A DNA stretch of 40,336 bases from a virus (Duplodnaviria > Heunggongvirae > Uroviricota > Caudoviricetes), in IMG/VR virus record IMGVR_UViG_643348545_000005; one strand, given 5' to 3'. Shown piece by piece: positions 9,493-40,336 of the stretch. The notes under the pieces were generated by a model. It made no database searches. It saw nothing but the letters and a program-made list of their open reading frames with translations, and was not told the origin of the DNA. The first letter of the stretch is position 1. The number at the start of each line of letters is the position of its first letter. The position numbers and the translations under genes were made by a program.

Positions 9493-10080
9493 TCAGGCTT
9501 CGGCTTCTTTTCCCCAGCCAACCTTATAGTCCAGAATCGCCGCCGTATCGTTCAGGGCGGCGATCTCTTTTTTCATGTTACGCTGGCGAATGTGAATTTC
9601 CATCCCTTTGGCAAACAGGGCTTTTGCGGCTGCATCGCTGAGGGCAATCAGCTCATCAGCAGAAACAGGAACATCGTTGTTCTGTGCATCAGTCCAGAAA
9701 AAATCCAGCGGCAGGATCCCCGCTTTTGCGGCAGCAACGGAAGGCTCAAGGCGGGCCTGCGTTGACTTCCCGTAGTCCCATTTCCGGCCGTTATGTTCAA
9801 AGGTGTAACTCGCCGCTTCCATCGCATTACGCCAGGTGTTGATTTCGTCGTTTTTCAGGCGTCTGGCGTTTTCCCTGTCAGTGTCGTTTTCCTGGTATTC
9901 AGATACAGGGCCGTGATTTCCTGCTTTCAGTTCGCCCCAGAGTTTTTTGCCGTGTGGCGAGTTGTCATATTCGGTTGCCGTATAGGGCAGCCAGCTCTCC
10001 TCCCCTTCAAACTGGATCTCACAGTCGATAGTGCCGTCACGGTTATAAGCGGCATTTCTTGCTGATTTGATTGTGTGCAT
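9493..10080 (-). CDS. G: Tail fibre assembly protein
   Basis: Tfa-like protein immediately downstream of the tail fibre gene; stop codon only 10 bp from the U stop (convergent). Confidence 0.8.
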   Translation of the reverse strand: MHTIKSARNAAYNRDGTIDCEIQFEGEESWLPYTATEYDNSPHGKKLWGELKAGNHGPVSEYQENDTDRENARRLKNDEINTWRNAMEAASYTFEHNGRKWDYGKSTQARLEPSVAAAKAGILPLDFFWTDAQNNDVPVSADELIALSDAAAKALFAKGMEIHIRQRNMKKEIAALNDTAAILDYKVGWGKEAEA

Positions 10081-10091
10081 GAGTCTCTCCG

Positions 10092-11432
10092 TCAGGCAAT
10101 GCGCTCAAATATTCCGATTCCTGCGCCTGCATAAATGTCAGCGCAGGCCCGCCACGTGCCCGGTGGCCTGCGGTTTGTGTTCCAGTTTTGCATGGATTCA
10201 CGGGGGCCGAAGTTGCCTTCGGAATGAGTCAGGCTTATCAGTCTGAGTTTACTGCCCGGGCGGGTGTTTCCGGCCGTTATATCAATTTTGGCTGGCCACT
10301 CCCCTTCGGCATCCGTTGCCGCCAGAATAAAGCTGCCCACATCCCAGAGTGTCCGCTGTGTTTTTGCCTGTGCAGCCTCCAGTGCTTGCCGTGCTTTCTG
10401 CCCGGCGTTTTCTGCTGCCGTCATGGCCGTCTTCACAGCTTTTGGTGTGGCAGCCAGCACTTCACTGTCACTGTCCGTTGCGCTGCTTAGCTGAACAATA
10501 CCTCGCTCTGTCAGGGAGGCATCGCCGGTCTGCGTGATGGGGAGTATGGCAACCTCCTTCCATTCAGACCACGGCCCGTTGCCGGTGAAGTTACCTGTCA
10601 CTGTCCGGATAAATTTCCGTGGTGGATTCCAGGCGGTGTATTCCTGCTGGCAGAATCCCCATGCGCCCATCCTGATGGATAATGATCCGGCTGATGTTAC
10701 CGGGTAGTGATGTGCTGTAGTGGCGCCGTTGTTGTTGGGCTGATAGTAGTCACCATGATGTTCAGGTCTCCCCAGTGTATTCAGATCCACGGCGAGGGGG
10801 GCTGTTGGTCTTGTTACTGTCAGCGCCTTAAGTGCTTTTATTGCTTTGGGTGTGGCTGCCCGGGTTTCATCATCACTGTCGGTTTCACTACTGAGCTGAG
10901 TAAATCCTTTACTGGTGGTTGTGGCATCCGGGTGTTTACCGTTTTGTTCATGCTGCTTTATCATTTCTGCCACGCCAGCCTGTGTTGCCATGGTGGTTGA
11001 TGAGTCGGCTGTCAGATTTACAGAGGCTTCGTTGCTCAGCAGAATCACCATGCGGAATACCTGTTCTCTGCCTGAGCCCTCATCAAGCTGCGGTTTGTAA
11101 CCTTCCGCAACATTACCCACGGCGATGAGTGTGCCTTTGCTGTCAAACAGACCGATTTCGCGGATCCAGAATCCTCCTTCATTCGCAGGAATGATCACTT
11201 CGGCGGTTAAAAAACTGGTGTTTTCCGCGTCACGGCTGACCCTGCTGACCTCGCCCCGCCAGACCTCTTTAACGAGAGCGGTTTGCGTGGCCAGTGGTTC
11301 TGTGGGTTTACCGTTACCGTCTCCGACGGCGATATGTGTCAGCGTGATCTTTTCTCCATCCGGTAACACCGCAGCTGCGAGGGCTGCTGTGCCGGCATTT
11401 GTGATAATGGTTTTGTATTTTGCGGCCATCAT
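10092..11432 (-). CDS. H: Tail fibre protein
   Basis: N-terminus ...KTIITNAG...KITLTHIAVGDGNG...EVWRGEV...GGFWIREIGL matches the conserved P2 gpH N-terminal domain. Confidence 0.85.
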   Translation of the reverse strand: MMAAKYKTIITNAGTAALAAAVLPDGEKITLTHIAVGDGNGKPTEPLATQTALVKEVWRGEVSRVSRDAENTSFLTAEVIIPANEGGFWIREIGLFDSKGTLIAVGNVAEGYKPQLDEGSGREQVFRMVILLSNEASVNLTADSSTTMATQAGVAEMIKQHEQNGKHPDATTTSKGFTQLSSETDSDDETRAATPKAIKALKALTVTRPTAPLAVDLNTLGRPEHHGDYYQPNNNGATTAHHYPVTSAGSLSIRMGAWGFCQQEYTAWNPPRKFIRTVTGNFTGNGPWSEWKEVAILPITQTGDASLTERGIVQLSSATDSDSEVLAATPKAVKTAMTAAENAGQKARQALEAAQAKTQRTLWDVGSFILAATDAEGEWPAKIDITAGNTRPGSKLRLISLTHSEGNFGPRESMQNWNTNRRPPGTWRACADIYAGAGIGIFERIA

Positions 11433-15301: not shown

Positions 15302-17347
15302 TTATGCGGCGTTGCTGTTATTGATATCCACCGTCACATACTCAATCAGCACGGGGTAGGTGTCCTGGTTACTGGTGATATCCGTGATCAGCAGTTTGTC
15401 GTTATCCAGTCCTGCCGCCGGGCATTTCGCCAGATTAAAGGCCGCCTGGGTCTGACCGTTGATGACCGGTGTCACGCTGATGCTGTTATTTCCGGCAAAC
15501 CGGAACACCACGTTGTGCCAGTTATGATTAAATGCCCCGAAGGTTCCCAGTTTTGCATTCTGTTGTTTGTGCTGCATCAGATTCAGGTTTGCGCTGTCGC
15601 TCTGGATGAAGAAGGCGGCCAGCATATCGTTTCCTGCGCTGCCTTCCAGAACAACGTTTTCAGGTAGCTGAGAAACCGGCCAGTGCAGAGCCATGGCGAA
15701 GCGGTTTTCTGCCAGCTGAACACCTTCCGGGATTTTGAAACGAAAGGCAATTTCCCCGCCTTTCTGAAGTAATTCAGCTGCTTTACTTGCAGGCACATCG
15801 TGGGCGATTTTCCAGGCTGTTTGTTGCCCCTGGACTTTTTCCACTCGCATGGCTTTACCGCTCTCAGCAGCAGAGTCATTTACGACGGAGGCTTTTCCAT
15901 CTGCCCCTGTCCAGCCCTGTTCTTTCAGTTTCCCTTCCTGTGCGTCTGCGCGATAAGCGACGGCCGTTGTTCTTGCCGGTGATGACTGCGTACCTGCGCC
16001 CGGCTGAGGTGCAGGTGTGGAGGGCTGCGGGCTTTCCGTGGTGGTGCTGTCTGAACCGGCCGTGGCGGGAGGTATTGCGAGCACGCTGAACGGTGCGGGT
16101 GCACCTTTCAGGAAGGCGACGGTCTTCCCGGCATGCATCAGGATCGCCGTTGCCAGGCGGTCAGAAATAATGCCGCGGCGGGCCCATGAACTGAAATGCG
16201 TGGCGCGATCTGAAGAGGTCCAGTTTCCGTTACTACGGGATGCAGCACCGTAATAACCGGCTTCTGCCAGGTCAGGATCTTCGGCAGGCAGGTTTGTTGG
16301 CGTGTTAGCACCTTTCTCATCGGTCATCAGGGGCACAAAATAAATTTTTTGCGCTTCTTTGTTCTGATATGCACCGTAAACCACCGGGTACTGAGAGGTA
16401 TATTGTTGTTTCCAGATATAGGTGGTATCGCCGCAAATCCAGGGAACAAGTGATGCGTTGCCTCCGGTGCACTGTGCAGCATATGCGCTGAGATCTGCGC
16501 GGAACTGATTCACCATGTTCAGGAATAATTGCGGGTACTGTGCGTATGTTGCTGATTTCAGATCAAACTCTCCCAGCATCCAGACCACGGATAACAGGAC
16601 GTTTTTGGGGTTTTTATCCAGCGCGGCTTTTGTACGGGTAAGCAGATCGTTATACAGCGGTTTGCCGACGCCCCACAGGGATGATTCGGCCGTTGCTCCT
16701 GAAGATTCACTGAATGCCCCCTCTGCGCCGGAAGTAAACGCTGACCCTCCACGACAGCAAGGTACCAGGAGGATCCCTGCATTTTTCGGGATAAACGCCA
16801 GTAATTTTTTGGCAATATGTAAACCCTGTCCGACGCAGCCATACTGACCTTTTGACAGATCGGCGTTCGGATGATTAAGGCTGCTCATATCCTGTACATC
16901 ATGGAGACAGTGATCTGCCGGAATAATATCGTTATAGGTACATGCAGCGCCGCCCGGTGTCACCGTACTGCGACGCGCTAACTGTTTAATTCGTGGATCA
17001 GGACTGTCGAATGTATCCGGTAATGGCAGCCCCTCACCGTATGCCATGCCATTGGACTGACCAGCCAGTGGCACCACATAATAAAACTCTGGCTCAGTTG
17101 TGTGTCCAGTGTTGTATCCGTCGGTAGTGCCCGGTACGGGTTTTTCCTCGCCTTCTGGTACCGGAATGGCTGATGGCAGGTCTCTGTCAGTGACCAGTGC
17201 CTGCATCAGGTAAAATGGTGCTCCCGGCTCTGATGCTGAGACAGGTCCCCCAAGAAGTCCCCATCCTTCCCTGAGCATGGGCGCAAGTTTTTCGGCAAGT
17301 TCCTTGTTCGTCATTGCCGTCACAAGCTGATAATGTTTCGGTACCAT
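15302..17347 (-). CDS. NanS-p-like putative sialate O-acetylesterase (N-terminal DUF1737-like region, SGNH/GQSN esterase domain, Ser/Thr/Pro linker, C-terminal lectin-like domain)
   Basis: GQSN block (VVPLAGQSNGMAYGEG) and domain order resemble prophage NanS-p/YjhS esterases. Start moved to the ATG at 17347, which has a GGAG RBS. Confidence 0.55.
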   Translation of the reverse strand: MVPKHYQLVTAMTNKELAEKLAPMLREGWGLLGGPVSASEPGAPFYLMQALVTDRDLPSAIPVPEGEEKPVPGTTDGYNTGHTTEPEFYYVVPLAGQSNGMAYGEGLPLPDTFDSPDPRIKQLARRSTVTPGGAACTYNDIIPADHCLHDVQDMSSLNHPNADLSKGQYGCVGQGLHIAKKLLAFIPKNAGILLVPCCRGGSAFTSGAEGAFSESSGATAESSLWGVGKPLYNDLLTRTKAALDKNPKNVLLSVVWMLGEFDLKSATYAQYPQLFLNMVNQFRADLSAYAAQCTGGNASLVPWICGDTTYIWKQQYTSQYPVVYGAYQNKEAQKIYFVPLMTDEKGANTPTNLPAEDPDLAEAGYYGAASRSNGNWTSSDRATHFSSWARRGIISDRLATAILMHAGKTVAFLKGAPAPFSVLAIPPATAGSDSTTTESPQPSTPAPQPGAGTQSSPARTTAVAYRADAQEGKLKEQGWTGADGKASVVNDSAAESGKAMRVEKVQGQQTAWKIAHDVPASKAAELLQKGGEIAFRFKIPEGVQLAENRFAMALHWPVSQLPENVVLEGSAGNDMLAAFFIQSDSANLNLMQHKQQNAKLGTFGAFNHNWHNVVFRFAGNNSISVTPVINGQTQAAFNLAKCPAAGLDNDKLLITDITSNQDTYPVLIEYVTVDINNSNAA

Positions 17348-17633: not shown

Positions 17634-17901
17634 CCGCCTGTAAGTTTTTCCGCATCGTTTCACGTCGTTCTTCCCCTCTGGCTGCACGCTCCTGATCTTC
17701 GCGCCGGATAGCGGCCAGCGCTGACTGTGTCTCCGCCGTGGCCTTAAGCAACTCCCGGACGGTCGTATTGCTCTCTTTCACGGCTTTTTCCAGCGCTTCA
17801 TAACGGGTGCTCTCCTGACCTGAGCGATAGGCCCGGATGACCACCATTGCCTGCAGCGAAATGGTCAGCAGCAGCGCACAAAGGATAATGTTCAGTTTCA
17901 T
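17476..17901 (-). CDS. lysB: i-spanin (Rz/LysB-like)
   Basis: N-terminal TM helix (MKLNIILCALLLTISLQAMVV) followed by a charged coiled-coil region; ATGA overlap with the endolysin stop. Confidence 0.6.
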   Translation of the reverse strand: MKLNIILCALLLTISLQAMVVIRAYRSGQESTRYEALEKAVKESNTTVRELLKATAETQSALAAIRREDQERAARGEERRETMRKNLQADECARTSPPADVADSLQQHASAAENRRHLRERAGKSDQTDAGTGAAATHDMG

Positions 17902-18449
17902 GGCTGCGCTCCCGCGTCTTTCAGGCACCAGTTCTTAAAATCATTCCGGCGGTTAACCAGTCCCTGCGTGCGCGTTCCGCCACTGTTCACAAAATCTGTC
18001 AGCCGGTAACACATGAGGCGCCATTGCCGTGTCTGCGCGTGTTTCCAGATGGTGGTGCGTTGCGGCGTGCCGTTTTTGTTTTTAAACCACATCAGATTCC
18101 GGCAGCCCAGGTTAAAGGCGGCGTCCGTCATGGCTTCGAATGCAGACTGCGGCATCTGCTGCCCCCTGAAATTCTGTGTGATGCAGTTCTCAGCGCGGCG
18201 CATATCGTTGATCCACCGCCCGGCCACTTCCTCCTGTGTGTACAGGCGGTTTTCCACGTTACCGGTGGATCCGCATCCGACCGTACCGACCCCCACCAGA
18301 TCACGGTAGGGTCGGGCCCGGCACTCCTCCCATGTGGCAATTTTGATTTGTGCCTCGCGGGAGGTTCTCAGTTCTCCGGGAGCCAGGGAGATCCCCAGCG
18401 CCACAATGGCGGCCACGGCGTAACGCTTAGGTCCGGCCATCGTGCTCAT
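17898..18449 (-). CDS. K: SAR endolysin (lysozyme, GH24-like)
   Basis: N-terminal signal-anchor-release region (AVAAIVALGISLA) and E...D...T catalytic region (EECRARPYRDLVGVGTVGCG) as in P21 R-type lysozymes. Confidence 0.8.
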   Translation of the reverse strand: MSTMAGPKRYAVAAIVALGISLAPGELRTSREAQIKIATWEECRARPYRDLVGVGTVGCGSTGNVENRLYTQEEVAGRWINDMRRAENCITQNFRGQQMPQSAFEAMTDAAFNLGCRNLMWFKNKNGTPQRTTIWKHAQTRQWRLMCYRLTDFVNSGGTRTQGLVNRRNDFKNWCLKDAGAQP

Positions 18450-18723
18450 CCTGCTTCAGAAGCATCATTGCCCGGCGCTCTGCGTCGTTCAGCTCCCTTC
18501 CTTCTGACTGCATAAGGATTTTTTCAATCAGTTCGTTGCGCCTTGCCTGGGCGATCTCCATCCTGCGGCGGTGAAGCCAGGCACGAAGCAGTGACAGCGT
18601 TCCCAGCACAAAACCGGCCACGGCAATTTTTTCGCTCAGCGTCATCACGCCGATACCGGCTGTCGTCACTGACGCCCAGAACGTGATGTGATCACAAAGC
18701 CGCTGAAACATTCTCACCCCCAC
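18427..18723 (-). CDS. Y: Holin
   Basis: Small protein with predicted TM helices immediately upstream of the endolysin gene. Confidence 0.6.
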   Translation of the reverse strand: MGVRMFQRLCDHITFWASVTTAGIGVMTLSEKIAVAGFVLGTLSLLRAWLHRRRMEIAQARRNELIEKILMQSEGRELNDAERRAMMLLKQDEHDGRT

Positions 18724-18914
18724 AACTGGATCATTTCACGCCGGGTCTGCCCCTGCAGCTCCGGCAGCTCCACTTCCTGTCCGGCATGCAGAAACATGAC
18801 GGCTGAAATCCCCGGATTGGCGGCCAGTACCGCCTCAGTCACCCCCTGCGTGGTGCCGTAATGGCGCTGACAGAGTAAATCGACGGTGTCACCGTCCAGA
18901 GCCATTACTTTCAT
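18714..18914 (-). CDS. X: Tail protein X
   Basis: MKVMALDGDTVDLLCQRHYG...VLAANPG matches P2 gpX; start at MKVM overlaps the L stop. Confidence 0.7.
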   Translation of the reverse strand: MKVMALDGDTVDLLCQRHYGTTQGVTEAVLAANPGISAVMFLHAGQEVELPELQGQTRREMIQLWG

Positions 18915-19408
18915 CAGACCAGCTCCGCATAAATGCGGGTGACACCGCGTATGTCTGATATTGCCCAGCGGGCATCCCGCCACAAATCCTCAACCTGCAT
19001 GTCCAGCGCGTCAGCCCTGCGGTCGCCTTTATCGGTGGTATCCACATCCCGGGTGCGCTCCAGTACAAACGCGCGGGTGAGTGCGAAAACGGCCCTGCGG
19101 TAGCGGTGGACGTGTACACTCTCTCCGTTCACCTGCGTGGCCGGAACGTCAGCCAGTGAGGCCGCGCCTTCAGCCATCCGCTCACGTTTCCAGAGCTCCA
19201 GTTCGGCGATCACATGGGCGACCGCTTCCGTTGCTGCATGTAACAGACGGGTTGTTGTTGTCCTCCCCGGAATGCGGGAAGCCAGGCGAATTTCATGCAG
19301 TGAGATCGCCGGCCAGAAGTCACCCGCGCTCACCATGGCGTCGCCGTCATCGGTGTCGGTGGTATCTGTGTCAGCGCTGTTCACGCGGGGTCTGGCTATC
19401 AGACTCAT
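18914..19408 (-). CDS. L: Head completion / stabilisation protein L
   Basis: Position downstream of M and similarity to P2 gpL. Confidence 0.8.
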   Translation of the reverse strand: MSLIARPRVNSADTDTTDTDDGDAMVSAGDFWPAISLHEIRLASRIPGRTTTTRLLHAATEAVAHVIAELELWKRERMAEGAASLADVPATQVNGESVHVHRYRRAVFALTRAFVLERTRDVDTTDKGDRRADALDMQVEDLWRDARWAISDIRGVTRIYAELV

Positions 19409-19512
19409 GCCTGTCTCCGTAAAAATCAGGCGGTGGGCAACCGGTAAAAAGAACGCGAAGCCTGTTCAGATCACCGGTTGCGCCGCCTGCCGACGAGGTG
19501 CGGTTCGTTAAA

Positions 19513-20310
19513 TCAGTTTGTTTTGCGCGCGGCTTTTTTCTGGCTGGCAGCGCTTTTCTTTTTTGCGCTGCTCTTTTTCCCGCCGGTGGTGGTTTTCCTG
19601 CCCGTTGTGGATGCAGGCACCACCTGATTTCCGTCTGCCAGTTTCCTGACCGCGCGCTCCAGCGTGGCAATTTCACGCTTCACTCCCGAAGCCGGATTGA
19701 TCCGCATGGCTTCACGTAACAGGCTCAGCGACAGACGCAGATCATCGGGAGAGGAGGAGGCGCGGCGGGAAAATGCGCGTGCCTTGTGCAGTTTTGACCT
19801 GACCTGGTCCGGCATATCCTGCTCACTGACCAGGTGGTTCAGCTCATCAAGCATGGCGGTGTACACAGACAAATCCGCCTCGCTGTCCGTTGTGGCCTGC
19901 GTCAGAACGGCGTCAGTAATCTCTTCAGCCAGTACCGTGGCGGCGTCACGGCCAAAGTTATCCGGCAGCGCCAGACCATGGCGGATCACGTACTCCCCGA
20001 TACGCAGTGCCAGCGGGTAGTCACGGCAGTCAATGGCCCACACCATCATGGTGGTGATGACCTCATCCTGGCGTCCGCTGTCTCCTGCCAGGGTGCCTTC
20101 AATCCACCCTTCAAAGTCAGGCAACAGATGTTTTTTAAGCTCTGCCCTGGCGACGTTTGACTGAATACCCTTCAGCTGCATCTGTGCCAGCCTTAACTGG
20201 TGAAGGACCTGTTCATGTGCGGTTCTTTCCCGTTGTGTTTCCCGGGCGTTCATGGTCACCCGGTTGCGGGCCACCGCCTGTTGCACATAGCGTTGTGCCG
20301 GTGTCAGCAT
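19513..20310 (-). CDS. M: Terminase endonuclease (small) subunit M
   Basis: Similarity to P2 gpM; basic Lys-rich C-terminal tail. Confidence 0.85.
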   Translation of the reverse strand: MLTPAQRYVQQAVARNRVTMNARETQRERTAHEQVLHQLRLAQMQLKGIQSNVARAELKKHLLPDFEGWIEGTLAGDSGRQDEVITTMMVWAIDCRDYPLALRIGEYVIRHGLALPDNFGRDAATVLAEEITDAVLTQATTDSEADLSVYTAMLDELNHLVSEQDMPDQVRSKLHKARAFSRRASSSPDDLRLSLSLLREAMRINPASGVKREIATLERAVRKLADGNQVVPASTTGRKTTTGGKKSSAKKKSAASQKKAARKTN

Positions 20311-20350
20311 TTCTCAGCTCCTGTTAACGGGCGCGGCGCGCCCGTCCGGG

Positions 20351-21451
20351 TTATGCTTCGGGTTGCGGCTGTCCGCTTTCGGCGTTGTTGTCCGGATCTT
20401 CACCTGCGAAGGTGATCCCCTCAATCAGCGCGCATTTTCCGTAGTCTTCCACCACGTAGCAGTCATTCATGGACTGGTAAGTCGCGATACGGTTGTATTC
20501 CGGCTCCTCGCGAATGAAACGGCGCAGTGAGCCTTTCTGGAAGTAGATCGACAGGTTTTTCAGCGACGTGATGAGCATGGCGTCTTTCGGGAAGTACGGC
20601 GCAAGATACGTCTGAAGACCACCGACGGTACGGGACGCCACAATCAGCTGCCCGGCAACAAGCTCAGTGTTCGGGTTGGTGGTGCTGATGGCGTTAATCA
20701 TGGGAAGACGCAGTGTATTGAACAGATCCCGCCCCATCAGTACGACCAGATCCGGTGCGTCCTTATGCCATTCATCCAGCACGGATGAGCGGATGTCGTG
20801 CACCATGGCATCCGGGTTACCATAGTCACCTTTTGCCACCAGTTTGTTTTCATCATCGCGACGGGTCAGGGTCATCCCTTTAACCACGCGGGTGGCAGCC
20901 TTGTCGCGGATGTGTTTCAGCCAGCCCGGGTTGACGTCCTGCAGGAGAGGGTTGGTGGCACGATCGGAAATCAGCGCGTGTGACTCCCCGTTGAAACCAA
21001 TCATGATTCGATCCAGGGCTACCTGGCGGGTGATTTGCGCGCTCAGCAGTTGCTGAAAGTTTTTCTGGCTGCTCCATGCGTCAATCTGTGCGTAGCTGAT
21101 GAAGGTATCGTAGTTCACCTGCTCGCAGCGGTAACGGCGTGCATCCAGATCAGCAACTGATGCAGGATTGCGGCGTTTCACTCCGTCGCTCGTTGCGTTC
21201 GTGCTGGCAATGGGGCCGCTGGTGTCAATCAGGACTTTTTCACCTTCCTGGTCATCCACACCGATAAAATTGATTTCCTGTAACAGTCCGGCGCTTTCCT
21301 TGATGGCGTTCTCCATCTTCTGCTGAATGGATGGATCCACGCTGAAGGTTTTACCCAGGCGCTCTGTTGTGATACCAGCCAGCGATGCCTGCTGAATCAT
21401 ATAGCGTTCCAGACTGTCACGTCCTTCACGGGAAAGGGATAAACGGGCCAT
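20351..21451 (-). CDS. N: Major capsid protein N
   Basis: Similarity to P2 gpN throughout (MLQDV..GWL, DPDLVV, NLSIY, YVVEDY). Confidence 0.9.
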   Translation of the reverse strand: MARLSLSREGRDSLERYMIQQASLAGITTERLGKTFSVDPSIQQKMENAIKESAGLLQEINFIGVDDQEGEKVLIDTSGPIASTNATSDGVKRRNPASVADLDARRYRCEQVNYDTFISYAQIDAWSSQKNFQQLLSAQITRQVALDRIMIGFNGESHALISDRATNPLLQDVNPGWLKHIRDKAATRVVKGMTLTRRDDENKLVAKGDYGNPDAMVHDIRSSVLDEWHKDAPDLVVLMGRDLFNTLRLPMINAISTTNPNTELVAGQLIVASRTVGGLQTYLAPYFPKDAMLITSLKNLSIYFQKGSLRRFIREEPEYNRIATYQSMNDCYVVEDYGKCALIEGITFAGEDPDNNAESGQPQPEA

Positions 21452-21468
21452 AAATTACTCTTCTCCTG

Positions 21469-22305
21469 TCAGAATTCAGCCAGTGTCTGGTCAGTGCCGC
21501 CAGCGGAAGTAAAACGCTGCTGTGGATCGGCATCCTGGTTTCTCAGTTGCGCTTTCAGTGCTGCAAGCTCGAGACTGAGCTCATCCAGCGCCGTTTTGTC
21601 GAGGGCATGTTTCTGCTCCAGAGTGCTGAAACGGTCGATAAGATCTGCATGATCGGATGCGATGTTTTCCACAACGTCGCGCAGCTGGCTGAACTGCTCG
21701 CCATCCGCTGTGCGTGTTTTGCTGATGAGTGCCATGACGCGGCTGAACCACTGACGGCTCTCTTCCGTTCGCTGTTCTGTGGTGGTAAGCATCTCTGCTT
21801 CCATGGCGACGGTGAACATGGAGGGTTCTGTTGTGCACTTACTGAACTGCATGATGCTGGCGCGTTGCTGTGCGGCAAACTTCAGGCGTTCAGTGCCCAG
21901 ACTTGCTGGCGTGTCGGTCATTGCCAGACCCACAATGTAAGGCCCCTTGACGGCGTCCAGCTCAGGCAACACCTCAATGCTCGAATACACTTTTTTCCCG
22001 TCAGCAATCATGTTTTTCATGCGGTCGGTGGGTTCAATTTCGGCATATAACGCTGTACGCCCTGCCAGTTTCCCTTCGGTGATTTCATCAGTTGACAGAG
22101 CGATCAGATCACCCACTGCGCAGAGTTCACTGGATGGCCACATCGAAAGGACGTGCTCAATGTTCACCCGGGAGGCGTAAACGGACGGGTCATAGTTTTC
22201 TGCGGCCTGACGCAGCATTTCACCAGAAATTTCACGTCCGTCGATGGTTGAACCGGAAACGGCAACGCGAAATTTTTTGCGCTCTGGCGTGTTTTTGCTT
22301 CCCAT
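21469..22305 (-). CDS. O: Capsid scaffolding protein O
   Basis: Similarity to P2 gpO (FRVAVSG...DGR.IS). Start set at the ATG at 22305 with a GGAG RBS; the track ORF starts slightly upstream. Confidence 0.85.
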   Translation of the reverse strand: MGSKNTPERKKFRVAVSGSTIDGREISGEMLRQAAENYDPSVYASRVNIEHVLSMWPSSELCAVGDLIALSTDEITEGKLAGRTALYAEIEPTDRMKNMIADGKKVYSSIEVLPELDAVKGPYIVGLAMTDTPASLGTERLKFAAQQRASIMQFSKCTTEPSMFTVAMEAEMLTTTEQRTEESRQWFSRVMALISKTRTADGEQFSQLRDVVENIASDHADLIDRFSTLEQKHALDKTALDELSLELAALKAQLRNQDADPQQRFTSAGGTDQTLAEF

Positions 22306-22377
22306 GGAAATTCTCCATAACCTGGTCGTTTTTCCCATGATGGCGGTAGAGAACGGTGTGTCTCAAGGTGCTTAAGT

Positions 22378-22395
22378 TGTATGGCGACGGGGACA
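22378..22395. promoter_or_regulatory. Candidate Ogr-type late promoter element (TGT-N12-ACA) in the divergent O/P intergenic region
   Basis: TGTatggcgacggggACA about 65 bp upstream of the P start; P2 late promoters carry a TGT-N12-ACA dyad near -55. Confidence 0.35.
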
Positions 22396-22460
22396 ACGCG
22401 GGCAGGTATCAGGCGGTATTGCTGAGGCTTAATCTTGCCCTGTTAATGTCAGGGGGTGCA

Positions 22461-24194
22461 ATGATCCAGGATGTCTTTATTCGTATGCGGGCGAAACAGC
22501 TTTACTGGCAGGGGTATACCCCGGCGGATATCGCTCAGCTGATGGGAATAAACCAGAACACGGTTTATTCGTGGAAAAAACGCGATGAGTGGGATGCAAC
22601 TCCCCCGATCCAGCGGGTCACCCAGTCCATTGATGCACGCCTGATACAGCTCACCGCCAAACCGGATAAAAGCGGCGGTGACTTTAAGGAAATTGACCTG
22701 CTGACGCGCCAGCTGAAAAAACTGAATGACGGTCAGGGAGAACAGGCTGTTTCCGGTAAGAAGCCCCGCAGGCGCAAACTGAAAAATCACTTCACCGAAG
22801 AGCAGATTGTCGCACTCAGGGAAAAAATCCTGCCGTCACTGGCCTGGCATCAGCGCGAATGGTACGACAACCGCCATCACCGCAACCGCATGATCCTGAA
22901 GTCGCGTCAGATTGGTGCGACCTGGTATTTTGCGCGCGAAGCACTCCTTGATGCACTGCGTGATGATGTCTCCGCCGGGTACCAGCGCAACCAGATATTT
23001 TTGTCCGCATCCCGTCGCCAGGCATATCAGTTCAAACACTTTATTCAGCAGGCGGCGCTGGAAGTTGATGTCGAACTGAAAGGGGGGGACAAGATTGTTT
23101 TGTCTAACGGTGCAGAGCTTCACTTCCTTGGCACATCGGCAGCAACCGCTCAGTCGTATACCGGACACCTTAAATTTGATGAATTTTTTTGGGTCAGTAA
23201 CTTTGTGGAACTCAGGAAGGTTGCTGGGGCAATGGCGACACTGGAAGGGCTTACGCGAACCTACTTTTCAACACCGTCAGGTGAAACACATGAGGCGTAT
23301 CAGTTCTGGACGGGGGACCGCTGGAACAGCGAACAGCCACGCTCAAAACGCAGTGAGTTTGATGTTTCACATGCGCATCTGAAGGGGGGCGTGCTCTTTC
23401 CTGACGAAACATGGCGGCAGATTGTCACTATTGAGGATGCTGTCGCTAACGGATGGCGGTACACCAATATTGGTGTTATTCGCAGCGAAAATACAGAAAG
23501 TGAATTTCGTAATCTGTACATGTGCGAATTTGTCCGTGATGGTGAGGCAGCCTTCAGCCTGAGTGCGCTCACCGGCTGCGGTGTTGACGGCTATGACGAA
23601 TGGCCTGACTGGAAACCTTTTGCTGCCCGCCCTATGGGGGTGAGGGAGGTCTGGCTTGGGTATGACGCCAACGGCAGCAGCGGGAAGGGGGACTGCGGGG
23701 CACTGTCGGTGTGCGTGCCGCCCCTTGTTGCCGGTGGGCGTTTTCGCACGGTGGAAACTGTCAGGGTTCAGGGGATGGAGTTTGAACAGCAGGCCGCACT
23801 GATTGAGGAATACACCCAAAAATATAACGTGAAACATATCGGCATTGATGTGACCGGCGGGAACGGGGAGGGGGTTTATCAGATTGTGAAAAAGTTTTTC
23901 CCGATGGCCGTACCGTACAACTTCAATATCGCCTCCAAGCGGGCACTGGTCATGAAAATGCTTCAGGTGGTGCGTGCCGGACGCTGGGAGTATGACCGCA
24001 GTGAACGTGACCTGATCCAGGCATTCGCATCGGTGCGAAAAATACAGACACCCGGCGGCTATATCACCTACGACACCGACCGCTCCCGTGGCGTCAGCCA
24101 TGGTGACCTCGCCTGGGCAACCATGCTTGCTGTTATCAATGAGCCAATTGGTGCGGAGCGTGAGGATAATCGCGGCTTTGCAATGGAGTTCTGA
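22461..24194 (+). CDS. P: Terminase ATPase (large) subunit P
   Basis: Similarity to P2 gpP. Start set at the ATG at 22461 preceded by a GGGGG RBS. Confidence 0.9.
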   Translation: MIQDVFIRMRAKQLYWQGYTPADIAQLMGINQNTVYSWKKRDEWDATPPIQRVTQSIDARLIQLTAKPDKSGGDFKEIDLLTRQLKKLNDGQGEQAVSGKKPRRRKLKNHFTEEQIVALREKILPSLAWHQREWYDNRHHRNRMILKSRQIGATWYFAREALLDALRDDVSAGYQRNQIFLSASRRQAYQFKHFIQQAALEVDVELKGGDKIVLSNGAELHFLGTSAATAQSYTGHLKFDEFFWVSNFVELRKVAGAMATLEGLTRTYFSTPSGETHEAYQFWTGDRWNSEQPRSKRSEFDVSHAHLKGGVLFPDETWRQIVTIEDAVANGWRYTNIGVIRSENTESEFRNLYMCEFVRDGEAAFSLSALTGCGVDGYDEWPDWKPFAARPMGVREVWLGYDANGSSGKGDCGALSVCVPPLVAGGRFRTVETVRVQGMEFEQQAALIEEYTQKYNVKHIGIDVTGGNGEGVYQIVKKFFPMAVPYNFNIASKRALVMKMLQVVRAGRWEYDRSERDLIQAFASVRKIQTPGGYITYDTDRSRGVSHGDLAWATMLAVINEPIGAEREDNRGFAMEF

Positions 24195-24199
24195 ACACA

Positions 24200-25242
24200 A
24201 TGAGTAAACGCAAAAATACACCGGAAAGCGGGGGCAGGATTCGCTACACGATGCACTGAAATCAACGCCTGCACTCAGCGCATTCACCTTTGATGGGCCC
24301 TATGAAGTCAGCCGCATGGATCTCCTGGATAACATGTCATGTGCAGATAACGGGCGCTACTTTGATACCCCCATGGACTGGAACGCTATCGCCCGTGCAT
24401 CCCGTCGTGCGTCCTGGCATCAGTCGGCTTTGTACTTCAAGCGCAACGCCCTGAACGGGTGCTTTGTTCCTCACCCTCTGCTGTCCCGCCAGGCGTTTTC
24501 AGCGTTTGCGCTCGACTGGTTTGTGTTTGGTAATGCCTATCTTGAAGTGCGGCGTAACAGGCTGGGGGAACCACTCCTGCTTCGCCCGGCACTGGCAAAA
24601 TATACACGCAGGGGAAGTGACCTGGATACCTACTGGTATCTCAACGACGACGGTACGGAGTTCAGTTTCAGGAAAGGGACTGTGTGCCACGTGCTTAATC
24701 CTGATATTAATCAGGAGATCTACGGGATGCCGGAATATATCGGCGGGTTGCTGTCTGTCAGCCTGTCAAACTCAGCGGATACATTCCGCAAACTCTACTA
24801 CGATAACGGCTCGCATGCCGGGTGTATTATCTATGTAGGCACATCTCAGGCGAATGCGGAAAGTGTCGAGGCCATTAAAAAAACGCTTACGGATTCCCGT
24901 GGTCGCGGGGCGTTTAAAAACCTGTTTCTACATGCACCGGGTGGTGGCAAGGATGGTGTGCAAATACTGCCGTTCCAGCAGATAACCGCAAAGGATGAAT
25001 TCCTGAACATCAAGGGGAGCGCCCGCGACGATATCCTTGCTGCCCATCGTGTACCACCTCAACTGATGGGGGCAATGCCTGACGGGAATGCGGCGTTTGG
25101 TGACGTTGAAAAAGCGGCGAGAGTGTTTTTCATCAACGAGTTGCAACCTGTCATGGAGGCCATGAAGCATGTCAATGAATGGCTTGGCGTTGAGGTGATG
25201 CGCTTTAACCCCTATGCCCTGCTTCTGGATAACGCCAGCTGA
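24200..25242 (+). CDS. Q: Portal protein Q; apparent frameshift near the 5-prime end (possible pseudogene or sequencing error)
   Basis: ATG at 24200 (5 nt after the P stop) encodes MSKRKNTPESGG... and hits a stop at 24257-24259; the portal-like remainder is in another frame that is open from 24208 (first in-frame ATG at 24316). The frames meet at a G5 run at 24230-24235. Confidence 0.6.
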
Positions 25243-25269
25243 CGCGCTTCGCTTGTCTGCTGCTTCGCC

Positions 25270-25292
25270 GGGGCATAAAAAATTTATGCCCC
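25270..25292. terminator. Bidirectional hairpin terminator between convergent Q and the 167-aa gene
   Basis: Perfect 10-bp stem ggggcataaa/tttatgcccc with a 3-nt loop. Confidence 0.5.
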
Positions 25293-25307
25293 GACTCTCC
25301 AGCTCTC

Positions 25308-25811
25308 TTAACGGAATGCGGATGGCGTTCTTCTTTGCAGCTTGCTGATAATATGCATCTTCATACTGTTTACTATCGGCAGCCATTCCCTGTCACCGTC
25401 TCCGTTGATGACCACGCGAATGGAGGTATCATCTTCCACGCGAACCCGAAGAGATACACCGTCTTTTCCGACGGAATGTAACTCCATTGCCAGGACTATG
25501 TTTACCGACTCTCCTTCATCGTGTGAGTCAACCCATGTTCTTACAGCCATCCGGAATATGTTATCTGTGTCGGTTGCAATCATATTTACCGGAAATGGCC
25601 TGAAGTCCCGATCGTTTCTGCACGGAAACCCCGTATCAACGTAACGATGATGCTCGCCGTCTTTGTCTTCCCATGTCTCTGAAGGCAATTCCAGCCACTG
25701 CTCATAAAAAGCAACCAGCTTTTCAGCCTGATTGCGCAGAATCCCTGTAACCTCCCGCCTCGCGTCCCGGCTCTTTTTGTTTGCCAGGTACAAATCGCGA
25801 AAATGGCTCAT
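25308..25811 (-). CDS. Hypothetical protein (167 aa), cargo gene at the portal/cos side
   Basis: Clean ORF with ordinary codon composition; no family I can recognise; lies in the variable region of P2-like phages. Confidence 0.5.
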   Translation of the reverse strand: MSHFRDLYLANKKSRDARREVTGILRNQAEKLVAFYEQWLELPSETWEDKDGEHHRYVDTGFPCRNDRDFRPFPVNMIATDTDNIFRMAVRTWVDSHDEGESVNIVLAMELHSVGKDGVSLRVRVEDDTSIRVVINGDGDREWLPIVNSMKMHIISKLQRRTPSAFR

Positions 25812-26356
25812 GTCGCTCTCCTTTGGTCTGTTTATGCCAGCCTGTATTCTGCGCTCACCTCATATTGTGCGCAAGTTTTCACCCGTGAATGACTGATACT
25901 TTAAATTCTATTAACTTTATGATTTCAGTGATTTTTGTCTCTCTTTTTTATCCCGTTCGTCACGTCCGTTTCCCTCCCGATCTCCGACCTCGCCAGACGC
26001 AATCAGACGCATTCTGACGGCCTGTTTCCCTGACCATGTTTTGATGTGGTTTTTCAAAACTGACTTTACTGCGTGCGTATCACGCGCCATACGACCCCAA
26101 ATAAAGCAACCCGCCTTCCATCCCTCAATTCGGGCGCCCTTCCCTCGTCGCCTGCGCGCTGCAATTGCCTCGTTTTTCGTGCACCGTGCAAACCGGCCTC
26201 AGCCAGCGCCGTTACTGGGCTGAATGGGGATGAAACACATAAGAAAAATTGTGCAATTTCGTGCGCTTTTGTGCATTTTTTATCTTGCGATTTTTGGGGG
26301 TGGGTGGTGATGATAATCATCTGTCTGAATCAGTGGTGTATTGCCGGGTGAGAACT

Positions 26357-26893
26357 GTGAAAAATTACTCATATCCTTATTTAACTTTTGTCACGCTTTC
26401 TGTTTTGGGGGGGATTTTTCTTTTTATTTGGTGGCGAAACGATGTTTACAGAATTACCTACCTTTATTCGTTCACGACAAACTGCCTTGTTTCAGTGTCT
26501 GTGGTGCTTTCGGTTTTTGTCTCACTGTGCCTGTTGAAAAAGAACCTGGTTGATCGGTCTAAATTTACCGGGGTTACATCGTATCTTAAGTTTTTTTCGG
26601 GTATGTGCCTTCTTACCTGGATGATTCTGTTTACCCTCCTGGTTACGCTGATATATTTTCTTCCGGGTGAAGATTCATTCTATTCCGCTCCCTATGAGTA
26701 CAGTCGCGGTAGCTCAAAAAGTTGTTCAGGGGCATTTGTTGATGATCCTGATTTGCAAAAAACAATCTTTATTTGCTACCCATACGGTGACTATCAGGAT
26801 GGTAATGTGATTTATGTGAAGAAGCGTGTGAATGCGCTGGGTGCGGTGGTCACCTATGCATACGCGACAAGCGGCCGATTTCGGTTTGACTGA
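26357..26893 (+). CDS. Hypothetical AT-rich membrane protein (about 3 TM helices plus a roughly 85-aa soluble C-terminal domain)
   Basis: ORF in an AT-rich island; hydrophobic segments; start uncertain (GTG at 26357 with a GGGTGAG RBS, or the internal ATG near 26599). Confidence 0.35.
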   Translation: MKNYSYPYLTFVTLSVLGGIFLFIWWRNDVYRITYLYSFTTNCLVSVSVVLSVFVSLCLLKKNLVDRSKFTGVTSYLKFFSGMCLLTWMILFTLLVTLIYFLPGEDSFYSAPYEYSRGSSKSCSGAFVDDPDLQKTIFICYPYGDYQDGNVIYVKKRVNALGAVVTYAYATSGRFRFD

Positions 26894-26942
26894 AAAAAGA
26901 AATCCTGTGTTACCCTCGCTGCTGAGGGTAACATGCGTGAAG

Positions 26943-27198
26943 TCATCGCCCGGTTCTTGAGCTGATAATGCTTTGCGTCAGCAGCTGCCAGCCCTCTTTC
27001 TGTTGCCCGTACTTGTCCTGATACCTGTTTACCTGCAAGTTTCCGTGCACCAGAATCAGATCGCCTTTTCTGTGTTTTGCCAGTTCTTCGTGCTGCTTCC
27101 CGAATGAAATAAGGTAAAGCCACATTGTGGTTGGCTGTTCTGCGCCATGGCAGGGTAGTGATACCGCCAGTTGTGCCGTTGTGACGTTTGAGGTAGCC
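26943..27198 (-). pseudogene. SSB-like OB-fold protein gene, 3-prime portion (interrupted by the IS)
   Basis: Translation ...TSNVTTAQLAVSLPCHGAEQPTTMWLYLISFGKQHEELAKHRKGDLILVHGNLQVNRYQDKYGQQKEGW aligns with the SSB core (W..V.LFGK...RKG..V.I.G.L..R.W.D..GQ); the frame runs up to the IS left end. Confidence 0.45.
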
Positions 27199-27252
27199 TG
27201 AGTTTAACGGACACTCCTTCCTGAAATAGAATGGCATCAGAAGGAGCTAATA

Positions 27253-27555
27253 ATGAGCAGAAAAACCCAACGTTACTCTAAAGAGTTCAAAGCCGAAGCT
27301 GTCAGAACGGTTCTTGAAAATCAACTTTCGATCAGTGAAGGCGCTTCCCGATTATCTCTTCCTGAAGGCACTTTAGGACAATGGGTTACCGCCGCCAGAA
27401 AAGGGCTCGGTACTCCTGGTTCCCGCACGGTGGCTGAACTGGAATCTGAAATTCTGCAACTGCGTAAGGCGTTAAATGAAGCTCGCCTTGAGCGAGATAT
27501 ATTAAAAAAAGCAACAGCGTATTTTGCACAGGAGTCGCTGAAAAATACGCGTTAA
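27253..27555 (+). CDS. IS3-family transposase OrfA (HTH)
   Basis: 100-aa ORF with the typical IS3-family OrfA leucine-zipper end (...LERDILKKATAYFAQESLKNTR). Confidence 0.85.
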   Translation: MSRKTQRYSKEFKAEAVRTVLENQLSISEGASRLSLPEGTLGQWVTAARKGLGTPGSRTVAELESEILQLRKALNEARLERDILKKATAYFAQESLKNTR

Positions 27556-28409
27556 TCGAACAATGGCGACAACAATTTCCCATTGAAGCGATGTGTCAGG
27601 TATTTGGTGTATCCAGGAGCGGTTATTACAACTGGGTACAGCATGAACCCTCAGACATAAAACAAAGTGATGAGCGGCTAAAACTGGAGATTAAGGTGGC
27701 ACATATCCGCACTCGCGAAACATATGGAACCCGGCGGCTCCAGACGGAGCTGGCAGAGAATGGCATCATCGTTGGTCGTGACCGACTGGCACGTCTTCGT
27801 AAGGAGCTAAGGCTACGCTGTAAGCAGAAACGCAAGTTCAGAGCGACTACGAACTCGAACCACAATCTGCCAGTTGCGCCAAATCTGCTGAACCAGACGT
27901 TCGCTCCTACAGCACCAAATCAGGTCTGGGTGGCGGACCTGACGTATGTTGCCACACAGGAGGGATGGTTGTACCTCGCTGGCATCAAAGATGTTTATAC
28001 GTGCGAAATTGTCGGCTACGCCATGGGAGAGCGCATGACAAAAGAGCTGACAGGTAAAGCCCTGTTTATGGCGCTCAGGAGCCAGCGCCCACCTGCCGGG
28101 CTAATCCACCACTCTGATCGAGGTTCACAGTACTGCGCATACGATTACCGGGTCATACAGGAGCAGTTTGGTCTGAAAACATCAATGTCGCGTAAAGGTA
28201 ACTGTTACGACAACGCTCCGATGGAAAGCTTCTGGGGAACGCTGAAAAATGAGAGCCTGAGCCACTATCGTTTTAATAACCGGGATGAAGCCATCTCAGT
28301 AATACGGGAATACATTGAGATTTTCTACAATCGTCAGCGTCGTCACTCTCGTCTGGGGAATATCTCCCCGGCAGCCTTCAGGGAAAAATATCATCAGATG
28401 GCTGCTTAA
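27504..28409 (+). CDS. IS3-family transposase OrfB (DDE catalytic domain), expressed as an OrfAB fusion by -1 frameshift at A AAA AAA G (27504-27511)
   Basis: The -1 frame is open from the slippery site and encodes an rve-type integrase core (...VADLTYV...HHSDRGSQY...NAPMESFWGTLKNE...). Confidence 0.8.
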   Translation, partial: KKSNSVFCTGVAEKYALIEQWRQQFPIEAMCQVFGVSRSGYYNWVQHEPSDIKQSDERLKLEIKVAHIRTRETYGTRRLQTELAENGIIVGRDRLARLRKELRLRCKQKRKFRATTNSNHNLPVAPNLLNQTFAPTAPNQVWVADLTYVATQEGWLYLAGIKDVYTCEIVGYAMGERMTKELTGKALFMALRSQRPPAGLIHHSDRGSQYCAYDYRVIQEQFGLKTSMSRKGNCYDNAPMESFWGTLKNESLSHYRFNNRDEAISVIREYIEIFYNRQRRHSRLGNISPAAFREKYHQMAA

Positions 28410-28442
28410 AAAAAGAACAAATGGTAGTGTCCGCTATTGCCA

Positions 28443-28527
28443 GTACACCTCAGTTGGTTCCTTTGGTTGTTCTCCTTGTGTTCGGGTCTGCTGCCAGTCG
28501 TCCCTCTGTTGCAACCTGTGTTGGCAT
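28443..28527 (-). pseudogene. SSB-like gene, 5-prime fragment on the other side of the IS
   Basis: ATG at 28527 with a GGGAGA RBS encodes MPTQVATEGRLAADPNTRRTTKGTN, matching the SSB N-terminal GNLGQDPEVRYMPNG signature; the frame does not join cleanly to the 3-prime part. Confidence 0.35.
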
Positions 28528-35594: not shown

Positions 35595-36185
35595 TCATAT
35601 GTTCAGGAATGGTGTTGTGAAGCGCTGCCAGATTTCTGACACGACCTTTGCCTGGTAAACGGCATCGCCCAGTGCAGTGTGAGCAATAGCCTCCTTTCCT
35701 GATCTGCCTGGCATTTTCCATCCAGTTGATTCAGCCATGGCGATAAGCGGGCGCATACAGCGCTCGTTCCAGTAGCACCAGGGGATGCTTTTTTCTCCGG
35801 CTGTGCGTGTTATGGCGGATTTCAGGATCGGGAAATCGAAGGATGCGCCTTTGCACCATATGGTCAGTGAATTGCCCGGGCTTTCGTCATGCATATTGCG
35901 TGAAATGAACGCCAGAAATTCGGTTACTGCCGCAAGCTCTGTTCCCTCTGCGTTGCGCAGGCAGGATCTGGCCTCCACGGATTGTCCGGCCCACCATACA
36001 GCGGTGGCTGCATTGACGGTTCCGCCGTTGCGTTCTGAATCCACCGGGTCGATGAATTTCTCAAACTGCTTGCCCAGCTTTCCGGTGAACGGGTCGAAAA
36101 ACACCGCCCCAATCGCGAATATGGCTGCGCCCGGTCCGTTACCCAGTGTTTCGGTGTCAATCATGAGATGGTTCATTATGCGCAC
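35595..36185 (-). CDS. DEDD-type 3-prime to 5-prime exonuclease (DnaQ-like fold)
   Basis: N-terminal Exo I motif MIDTETLG and overall size typical of phage-encoded DnaQ-like exonucleases. Confidence 0.6.
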   Translation of the reverse strand: MRIMNHLMIDTETLGNGPGAAIFAIGAVFFDPFTGKLGKQFEKFIDPVDSERNGGTVNAATAVWWAGQSVEARSCLRNAEGTELAAVTEFLAFISRNMHDESPGNSLTIWCKGASFDFPILKSAITRTAGEKSIPWCYWNERCMRPLIAMAESTGWKMPGRSGKEAIAHTALGDAVYQAKVVSEIWQRFTTPFLNI

Positions 36186-39343: not shown

Positions 39344-40336
39344 ATGTCGATTAAGCAACTCAAAGACGGGCGTTATAAGGTTGATGTAAGACCGCAAGGG
39401 ACGGAAGGAAAGCGGATCCGTAAGATTTTTACCCTGAAGTCAAAGGCACAGGAGTTTGAAAGGTATGTTTTGCAGAATTTCCACGATAAACCGTGGCAGG
39501 CCAAGCCAGCTGATCAGCGTCGGTTATCCGAACTGATAGATGCCTGGTGGGTGCTTGATGGCCGGAATCAGCCTTACGGGGATACTTACAGGGTCAGGCT
39601 GGAAAAAATAAACCGTGAGATGAGGGACCCCTGCGCCAGTGAGATGACGCGAAAGTTTATGCTCGGGTATCGTTCAGACAAATTACAGGCCGGATTAATG
39701 CCCTCCAGTGTTAATCGTGATTTGTGCGCCTTGTCTGCAATGTTTACCTCGCTGATTGATGCGGAGGTTTTCCATAACGAAAACCCGGTGCGTGGAATAC
39801 GTAAGCTCAAGGTCAGGAATACAGAAATGGCCTTTCTTTCAGATGATGAGATTGATCGGCTGCTTGAACGACTCGAGGGGGATGCGCGTCGTGTTGCTGT
39901 TCTGTGTCTTTCCACTGGCGCAAGGTGGGGGGAAGCAGCTGGCTTACGTGGTGAGCATATCGTTGGTAACCGCGTAATGTTCTTTAACACAAAGAATGGA
40001 AAATCCCGCGCGGTTCCTGTTTCTGATACGGTGCTTTCGTTGATAAAAACCCGAAAAACCGGGCTATTGTACCAGGCTGATTACATCCGTTTTCGGGATA
40101 TCCTTCAGGAGGTGAAACCGGATTTACCCAAAGGTCAGGCGACTCACGTTATGCGTCACACGTTCGCCACGCATTTCATGATGAACGGCGGAAATATCGT
40201 TACGTTACAGCGAATCCTTGGGCACACCACGATTCAACAAACGATGACGTATGCGCATTTTTCACCGGACTTTTTACAGGATGCGATTAGCTTTAATCCG
40301 CTGGCTGATAGTGTCCATAAACTGTCCATTGACTAG
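39344..40336 (+). CDS. int: Tyrosine integrase (P2 Int family)
   Basis: Similarity to P2 Int (MSIKQL.DGRY.VD.RP, LSTGARWGEAA, HxxRHTFATHFMMNGG, ILGHT...YAHF); GGAGGGG RBS; ends exactly at the window end. Confidence 0.9.
   Translation: MSIKQLKDGRYKVDVRPQGTEGKRIRKIFTLKSKAQEFERYVLQNFHDKPWQAKPADQRRLSELIDAWWVLDGRNQPYGDTYRVRLEKINREMRDPCASEMTRKFMLGYRSDKLQAGLMPSSVNRDLCALSAMFTSLIDAEVFHNENPVRGIRKLKVRNTEMAFLSDDEIDRLLERLEGDARRVAVLCLSTGARWGEAAGLRGEHIVGNRVMFFNTKNGKSRAVPVSDTVLSLIKTRKTGLLYQADYIRFRDILQEVKPDLPKGQATHVMRHTFATHFMMNGGNIVTLQRILGHTTIQQTMTYAHFSPDFLQDAISFNPLADSVHKLSID

Follow-up and report, generated by a model that had tools for sequence, protein, structure and literature searches.

The arrangement of reading frames behind the large terminase gene of a P2-like prophage raises the question of whether this prophage can still make a portal protein, as a start codon immediately after the terminase gene opens a frame that soon stops and the bulk of the portal sequence lies in another frame. 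The prophage fills the window, the whole 40,336-nucleotide stretch that was analysed, between serS (1-1293), which it adjoins, and the integrase gene (39344-40336). The sequence matches E. coli ED1a, which would be the host lineage. The nearest sequenced phages are Peduoviridae of the P88/Xuanwuvirus type, at approximately 68-76% DNA identity, and the closest relatives are prophages at the same serS site in several E. coli strains, which are 99-99.8% identical to the window in DNA and share its integration site and gene order. These relatives have intact portal alleles (WP_042109434.1 in 2013C-3033 and STEC17-183; WP_016237829.1 in STEC2018-607), with a run of six A residues (or AAAAAT), a portal ORF of 347/348 amino acids and an SSB gene free of IS600, whereas the window has a run of five A residues and carries IS600. 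When the 56 annotated features of STEC17-183 (55 prophage coding sequences and serS) were mapped onto the window, all were open and of equal length with the exception of the portal gene (1 nt shorter), the SSB gene (split) and the exonuclease gene. The last of these, a 1-nt difference at 35759, was considered as a lesion and rejected, since an open ORF of 196 amino acids remains in the window.

The large terminase gene (gpP-like; 22461-24194, plus strand) is intact and is followed directly, in the same operon, by the portal gene, both being divergent from the scaffold, capsid and small terminase genes. As described in the earlier note, an ATG at 24200 lies 5 nt past the terminase stop codon (TGA, 24192-24194) and opens a frame that ends at a TGA after 19 codons (24200-24259, plus strand; stop codon at 24257-24259). 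A Shine-Dalgarno-like GGAG can be read in the sequence at 24185-24188 on the same strand, 11 nt upstream of this ATG and overlapping the end of the terminase gene. The product of the short frame, MSKRKNTPESGGRIRYTMH, begins with MSKRK, the authentic start of the portal, and continues with the out-of-frame NTPESGGRIRYTMH up to the TGA. The rest of the gpQ-like coding sequence (24214-25242, plus strand) is in the -1 frame, which is open from 24208, and the addition of one A yields a portal of 347 amino acids. The relatives' intact allele is annotated as a 347-amino-acid 'phage portal protein', and their translations give the N-terminus as MSKRKKYTGKRGQDSL; MSKRKKYTGKRGQDSLHDALKSTPALSAFTFDGPYEVSRMDLL. 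In the window the ATG at 24316, also noticed earlier, is the first ATG, GTG or TTG of the portal frame, with none between 24208 and 24316, and it begins an ORF of 308 amino acids (24316-25242, plus strand) that is listed in public databases as the portal (CAR07098.1 / B7MRY4; UniRef100_B7MRY4 is titled 'Portal vertex protein (GpQ) from prophage'). Consistent with a portal, this ORF matches the Pfam profile PF04860 with 66.9 bits against a cut-off of 39.1. What the window does not have is an uninterrupted ORF that includes both the propeptide and the AFTFxxP motif, because the frame is interrupted after codon 5; positions 24281-24301 do encode the motif, but it can be reached from no start codon.

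A 401-nt query across the junction between the two frames was used to find where the base had been lost. In 29 of 29 related prophages from complete E. coli genomes the matching sequence spans 402 nt, and all 29 matches are annotated there as 'phage portal protein' beside the terminase. An alignment of the window with six of these relatives (seven sequences) contains a single gap, which is in a run of A: the window reads cgcAAAAAtac, close relatives read cgcAAAAAAtac and JNEC-KY174 reads AAAAAT-TAC. The alignments, together with the indel census given below, place the 1-nt deletion in the tract of five A residues at 24212-24216 (plus strand), where the ancestral six encoded Lys5 and Lys6 as AAA AAA. 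The difference between five and six is not a multiple of three and leads to a stop after 19 codons, the pattern of a pseudogene created by a homopolymer indel.

The portal of the window is 45% identical to P2 gpQ over its full length and shares with it the operon layout, in which terminase P is followed by portal Q and both are divergent from scaffold O, capsid N and small terminase M, as well as a basic N-terminus (MSK[KR]K) and, where gpQ is cleaved to Q*, the AFTF motif. In the window, unlike P2, the 1-nt deletion interrupts the frame after codon 5, so that standard translation can no longer yield the full-length precursor. The likeness of the short ORF to the N-terminus of P2 Q, which had been remarked upon before, holds for the authentic MSKRK, but the following 'NTPESGG' is out of frame and its resemblance to 'KTPQPAA' of P2 / MSKKKGKTPQPA, as compared in the gpQ alignment, is coincidental. 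The 19-mer of the P2 cos site was sought in the window and was not found within three mismatches. Maturation of P2 gpQ involves a cleavage, presumably by gpO (PMC7552001), and the cryo-EM model of P2 Q* covers residues 27-340 (bioRxiv 10.64898/2026.09.14.750843). This published model was used for the N-terminus in place of an AlphaFold2 monomer, which, when the intact portal was predicted with the 47-sequence alignment described below, had pLDDT values of 35-56 over residues 1-50 and was mute on the fold of residues 30-39. Searching the PDB by sequence gave only distant portals of the HK97 family (Rcc01684), aligned from residue 159 on, which do not inform the N-terminus.

Several other explanations of the two frames have to be weighed against the loss of an A. 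The earlier note had placed the frameshift in the G5 run at 24230-24234 (plus strand), and a G added there would likewise join the two frames arithmetically. However, GGGGG has the same length and sequence in four intact close relatives, the only gap in the alignment is 18 nt upstream in the A run, and the protein obtained by inserting a G, MSKRKNTPESGGQDSL, differs from all intact relatives at residues 6-11. A missing G is therefore almost certainly not the cause, and the note, correct in its catch of the broken gene, misplaced the lesion by 18 nt. In general, arithmetic may allow two ORFs to be joined at any of several homopolymers, and it takes comparison with intact relatives to reveal which of them mutated. 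It has also been proposed that the run was mis-sequenced, in which case the true genome would have six A residues and an intact portal. Homopolymers are classic sites of error, and the carriers of the five-A allele shown here include none among diverged isolates. Against an error, however, assembly GCA_903974465.1 is 100% identical to the window over 9 kb (18316-27299) and carries the five A residues; its contig stops after 111 nt of IS600, the break that de novo assembly of short reads from the same clone would produce, and its identity confirms the base call for that clone while covering no diverged isolates. The truncated 308-amino-acid gene call recurs on approximately 30 contigs from several sources (NCBI, ENA and Logan); the exact product is indexed in 53 assembly-collection blocks, of the contigs, 24 were read, and the neighbourhood seen in GCA_903974465.1 recurs at a further 22 places. 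Assembly GCA_020580275.1 was dropped as support for the five-A allele, its contig beginning 1 nt before the ATG at 24316 with the A run outside it. It represents a different variant of the prophage, with 98.7% identity and no IS600, and its partial gene call equals the 308-amino-acid frameshift product; partial calls of this type mean that the counts of such contigs slightly overstate the carriers of the frameshift. Nor is the window prone to error. Indels were counted base by base against two whole relatives, and comparison with STEC2018-607, which is 99.3% identical, gave just three in 27 kb, namely A7/A6 at 1409, the relative's own terminase frameshift at 23818 and the deletion in the portal A run, which argues against a noisy assembly. 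A run of five A residues is short and is read reliably by both Sanger and Illumina sequencing. A metagenome scan found two contigs with the portal gene, both of intact length, and a scan of genome contigs for either portal allele gave no match. An error is very improbable, and on these comparisons the five-A allele is real but confined to one lineage.

A second set of alternatives accepts the deletion and asks whether a portal could be made in spite of it. One is that a functional portal of 308 amino acids starts at the ATG at 24316, as its public annotation implies. This ORF is open and keeps a complete PF04860 match, with profile position 52 aligning at residue 58 of the truncated form, and the first 26 residues of P2 gpQ are in any case removed in maturation (bioRxiv 10.64898/2026.09.14.750843). 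However, Thr27 of P2, the first modelled residue of the mature protein, aligns with Thr30 of the window portal, upstream of Met40, and a product starting at Met40 would lose the entire propeptide and also ten residues from the start of what, in P2, is the mature protein. A database search returned 3,136 portal homologues, nearly all of 340-365 amino acids unless partial. Of these, 47 diverse full-length sequences were aligned; all have 21-55 residues ahead of the Met40 column, so that the related portals starting at the equivalent of 24316, which had been put forward as a possibility and were looked for, are absent among the 47 (every one being at least 21 residues longer at the N-terminus). 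The column of Met40 is not conserved, with Arg, Tyr or Ser being commoner. By contrast, the (A/S)F(T/S)F-x-x-P motif, which spans the cleavage site of P2 gpQ and would be missing from the Met40 product, is carried by all 47, with Phe29 in 42, Phe31 in 44 and Pro34 in 43 of them. There is also no good Shine-Dalgarno sequence upstream of the internal ATG (GGCCCTATGAAGTCAGCCGC), no internal promoter for it was found, and its position 57 nt past the stop codon of the short ORF is likely to be poor for reinitiation. Given that the 308-amino-acid ORF holds the whole Pfam portal core, some activity from the internal start is conceivable, but the ATG at 24316 is not a natural start and a functional portal from it is very improbable. 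Recoding would be a different form of rescue, whereby a -1 slip of the ribosome on C-AAA-AAU (24211-24217), or an extra A added by RNA polymerase, restores a useful amount of full-length portal. A -1 slip after the AAA at 24212-24214 would give MSKRKKYTG..., identical to the wild type, slippage after AAT would produce the K6N form that occurs naturally in JNEC-KY174, and twelve portal copies per head suffice (bioRxiv 10.64898/2026.09.14.750843; PMC7552001). The window resembles programmed -1 frameshift sites, such as A AAA AAG of dnaX and that of the P2 E/E+E' tail chaperone, in its A-rich run and in the correct protein that results from a -1 slip, but it differs from them in having neither a canonical heptamer, a stimulatory structure nor a conserved two-frame layout. 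The heptamer C AAA AAU does not fit X XXY YYZ, its first base being C. The 83 nt downstream fold with an MFE of -19.8 against -20.65 +/- 2.79 for shuffled sequences (z = 0.30). As all 29 relatives are one base longer and the six aligned each carry one unbroken ORF, nothing at the portal junction has evolved as a recoding site. Transcriptional slippage becomes appreciable in E. coli from a run of about nine, and five A residues are well below this. Rescue by a -1 slip at a very low level is conceivable, but on these sequence features any rescue would be at background level, and a useful yield of portal by this route is even less probable than one from the internal start.

The portal is not the only gene of the prophage to be interrupted. 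An IS600 element of 1,264 bp (27189-28452, plus strand) is inserted in the SSB gene, leaving a 3' fragment (26943-27188, minus strand) cut off on one side and a 5' fragment (28453-28527, minus strand; coordinates mapped from the relative L007) on the other. Its size, its terminal inverted repeats (TGAGGT...ACCTCA), the 3-bp target duplication (GTT) and 100% identity to annotated copies identify it as IS600 of the IS3 family, and the insertion is absent from all close relatives examined. The suggestion that the prophage is cryptic, with a defective portal, thus gains from both a real lesion, seen again where the same clone was assembled independently, and the IS600 in the SSB gene. The tail fibre was considered as a third lesion and not counted, as it has an open ORF of 446 amino acids with a complete collar domain and two fibre repeats. 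This ORF (10092-11432, minus strand) has a unique C-terminal portion of approximately 100 amino acids and is followed by a DUF4376 gene (9493-10080, minus strand); the region is marked 'incomplete' by PGAP in two relatives and is an intact 'tail-collar fiber domain-containing protein' in others. For comparison, gpH of P2 has 669 amino acids. In STEC2018-607 a separate 1-nt deletion affects an A run of the large terminase gene (locus 17797-19529); the run has four A residues against five in the window (23814-23818), and PGAP marks the gene 'frameshifted'. This is a second, independent homopolymer mutation of a packaging gene, and it shows that A-run mutations recur in this family of prophages.

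Further differences and unusual genes were seen elsewhere in the prophage. Between the lysis cassette and the tail genes, 15302-17347 (minus strand) encodes a protein of 681 amino acids with DUF1737, SASA (sialate/carbohydrate acetylesterase) and DUF6645 domains, an unusual cargo for a P2-like phage that has no PADLOC match. Between the portal and the SSB/replication genes are a conserved protein of 167 amino acids (WP_000017881.1; 25308-25811, minus strand) and a hydrophobic ORF of 214 amino acids with a TTG start (26249-26893, plus strand), neither of which had a match in Pfam and PADLOC scans. Within the latter, which is unannotated in the relative, the G run at 26407-26413 is a further homopolymer of variable length, with seven G residues in the window and nine in STEC17-183. 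The relatives carry different content beside the portal, STEC2018-607 having an extra gene of 178 amino acids, and the corresponding region of P2 holds accessory and anti-phage genes (old, tin). In the stretch from serS to ogr (approximately 1400-2320), relatives have two annotated Hok/Gef toxin genes, and the region contains an internal repeat. Positions 1487-1840 and 1961-2316 of the window also match a shifted second position in the relatives with 79-94% identity, both Hok/Gef copies of the relatives map onto 2006-2146, and 1490-1760 is the stretch of the prophage most divergent from STEC17-183.

The account that very probably applies is that the portal gene lost one A from the six encoding Lys5 and Lys6, and that this is a recent null or severe lesion in the ordinary early decay of a prophage. 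The loss is most likely to have arisen by replication slippage. The deletion itself, its position, its presence in a second assembly and the lack of a natural internal start are shown by the sequence comparisons; the loss of function and the slippage are inferred. Ribosomes would start at the ATG at 24200, coupled to the end of the terminase gene, would be out of frame after codon 5 and would terminate after 19 codons, leaving the remaining 1,029 nt of portal sequence with no natural start. The body of the portal would then be untranslated or at best poorly translated, giving a null or severely hypomorphic gene. Once repaired, the portal of the window differs from the allele of STEC2018-607 by one synonymous and no nonsynonymous codon, which indicates that the frameshift is very recent. 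Together the portal deletion and the IS600 insertion mark the first steps of prophage decay. The window is like decaying or cryptic prophages in combining a frameshift in an essential morphogenesis gene and an IS insertion with an otherwise complete prophage, and unlike the typical case in being very early, with two lesions only, no deletions and a broken gene free of secondary substitutions. It is very doubtful, by comparison, that the knockout is a step towards a useful head-less derivative, such as tail-only tailocin-like particles, or that the change between five and six A residues is a reversible slip-strand switch; this idea stems from the tail genes (with the status of the fibre uncertain), lysis genes and regulators being open and from the independent terminase frameshift in STEC2018-607.

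Both head assembly and DNA packaging require the portal in P2-like phages, and with it broken the prophage should be non-productive and of no use as a helper of P4-like satellites. On the early-decay account no portal dodecamer would form, procapsids would be unable to package DNA, and the prophage would make no infectious particles and supply no heads to such satellites. Immunity, lysis and tail genes would probably still be expressible, the tail, lysis, replication, regulatory and integrase genes being open. A search of the literature on induction of the ED1a prophages found nothing relevant. As databases list the 308-amino-acid ORF as an ordinary 'phage portal protein' (CAR07098.1 / B7MRY4 and PGAP-type entries), tools that assess the completeness of prophages will tend to score the serS prophage of ED1a as intact. 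For those who use the ED1a lineage in induction experiments, in tests of helpers for P4 satellites or in a census of prophages, this prophage should be treated as probably non-productive.
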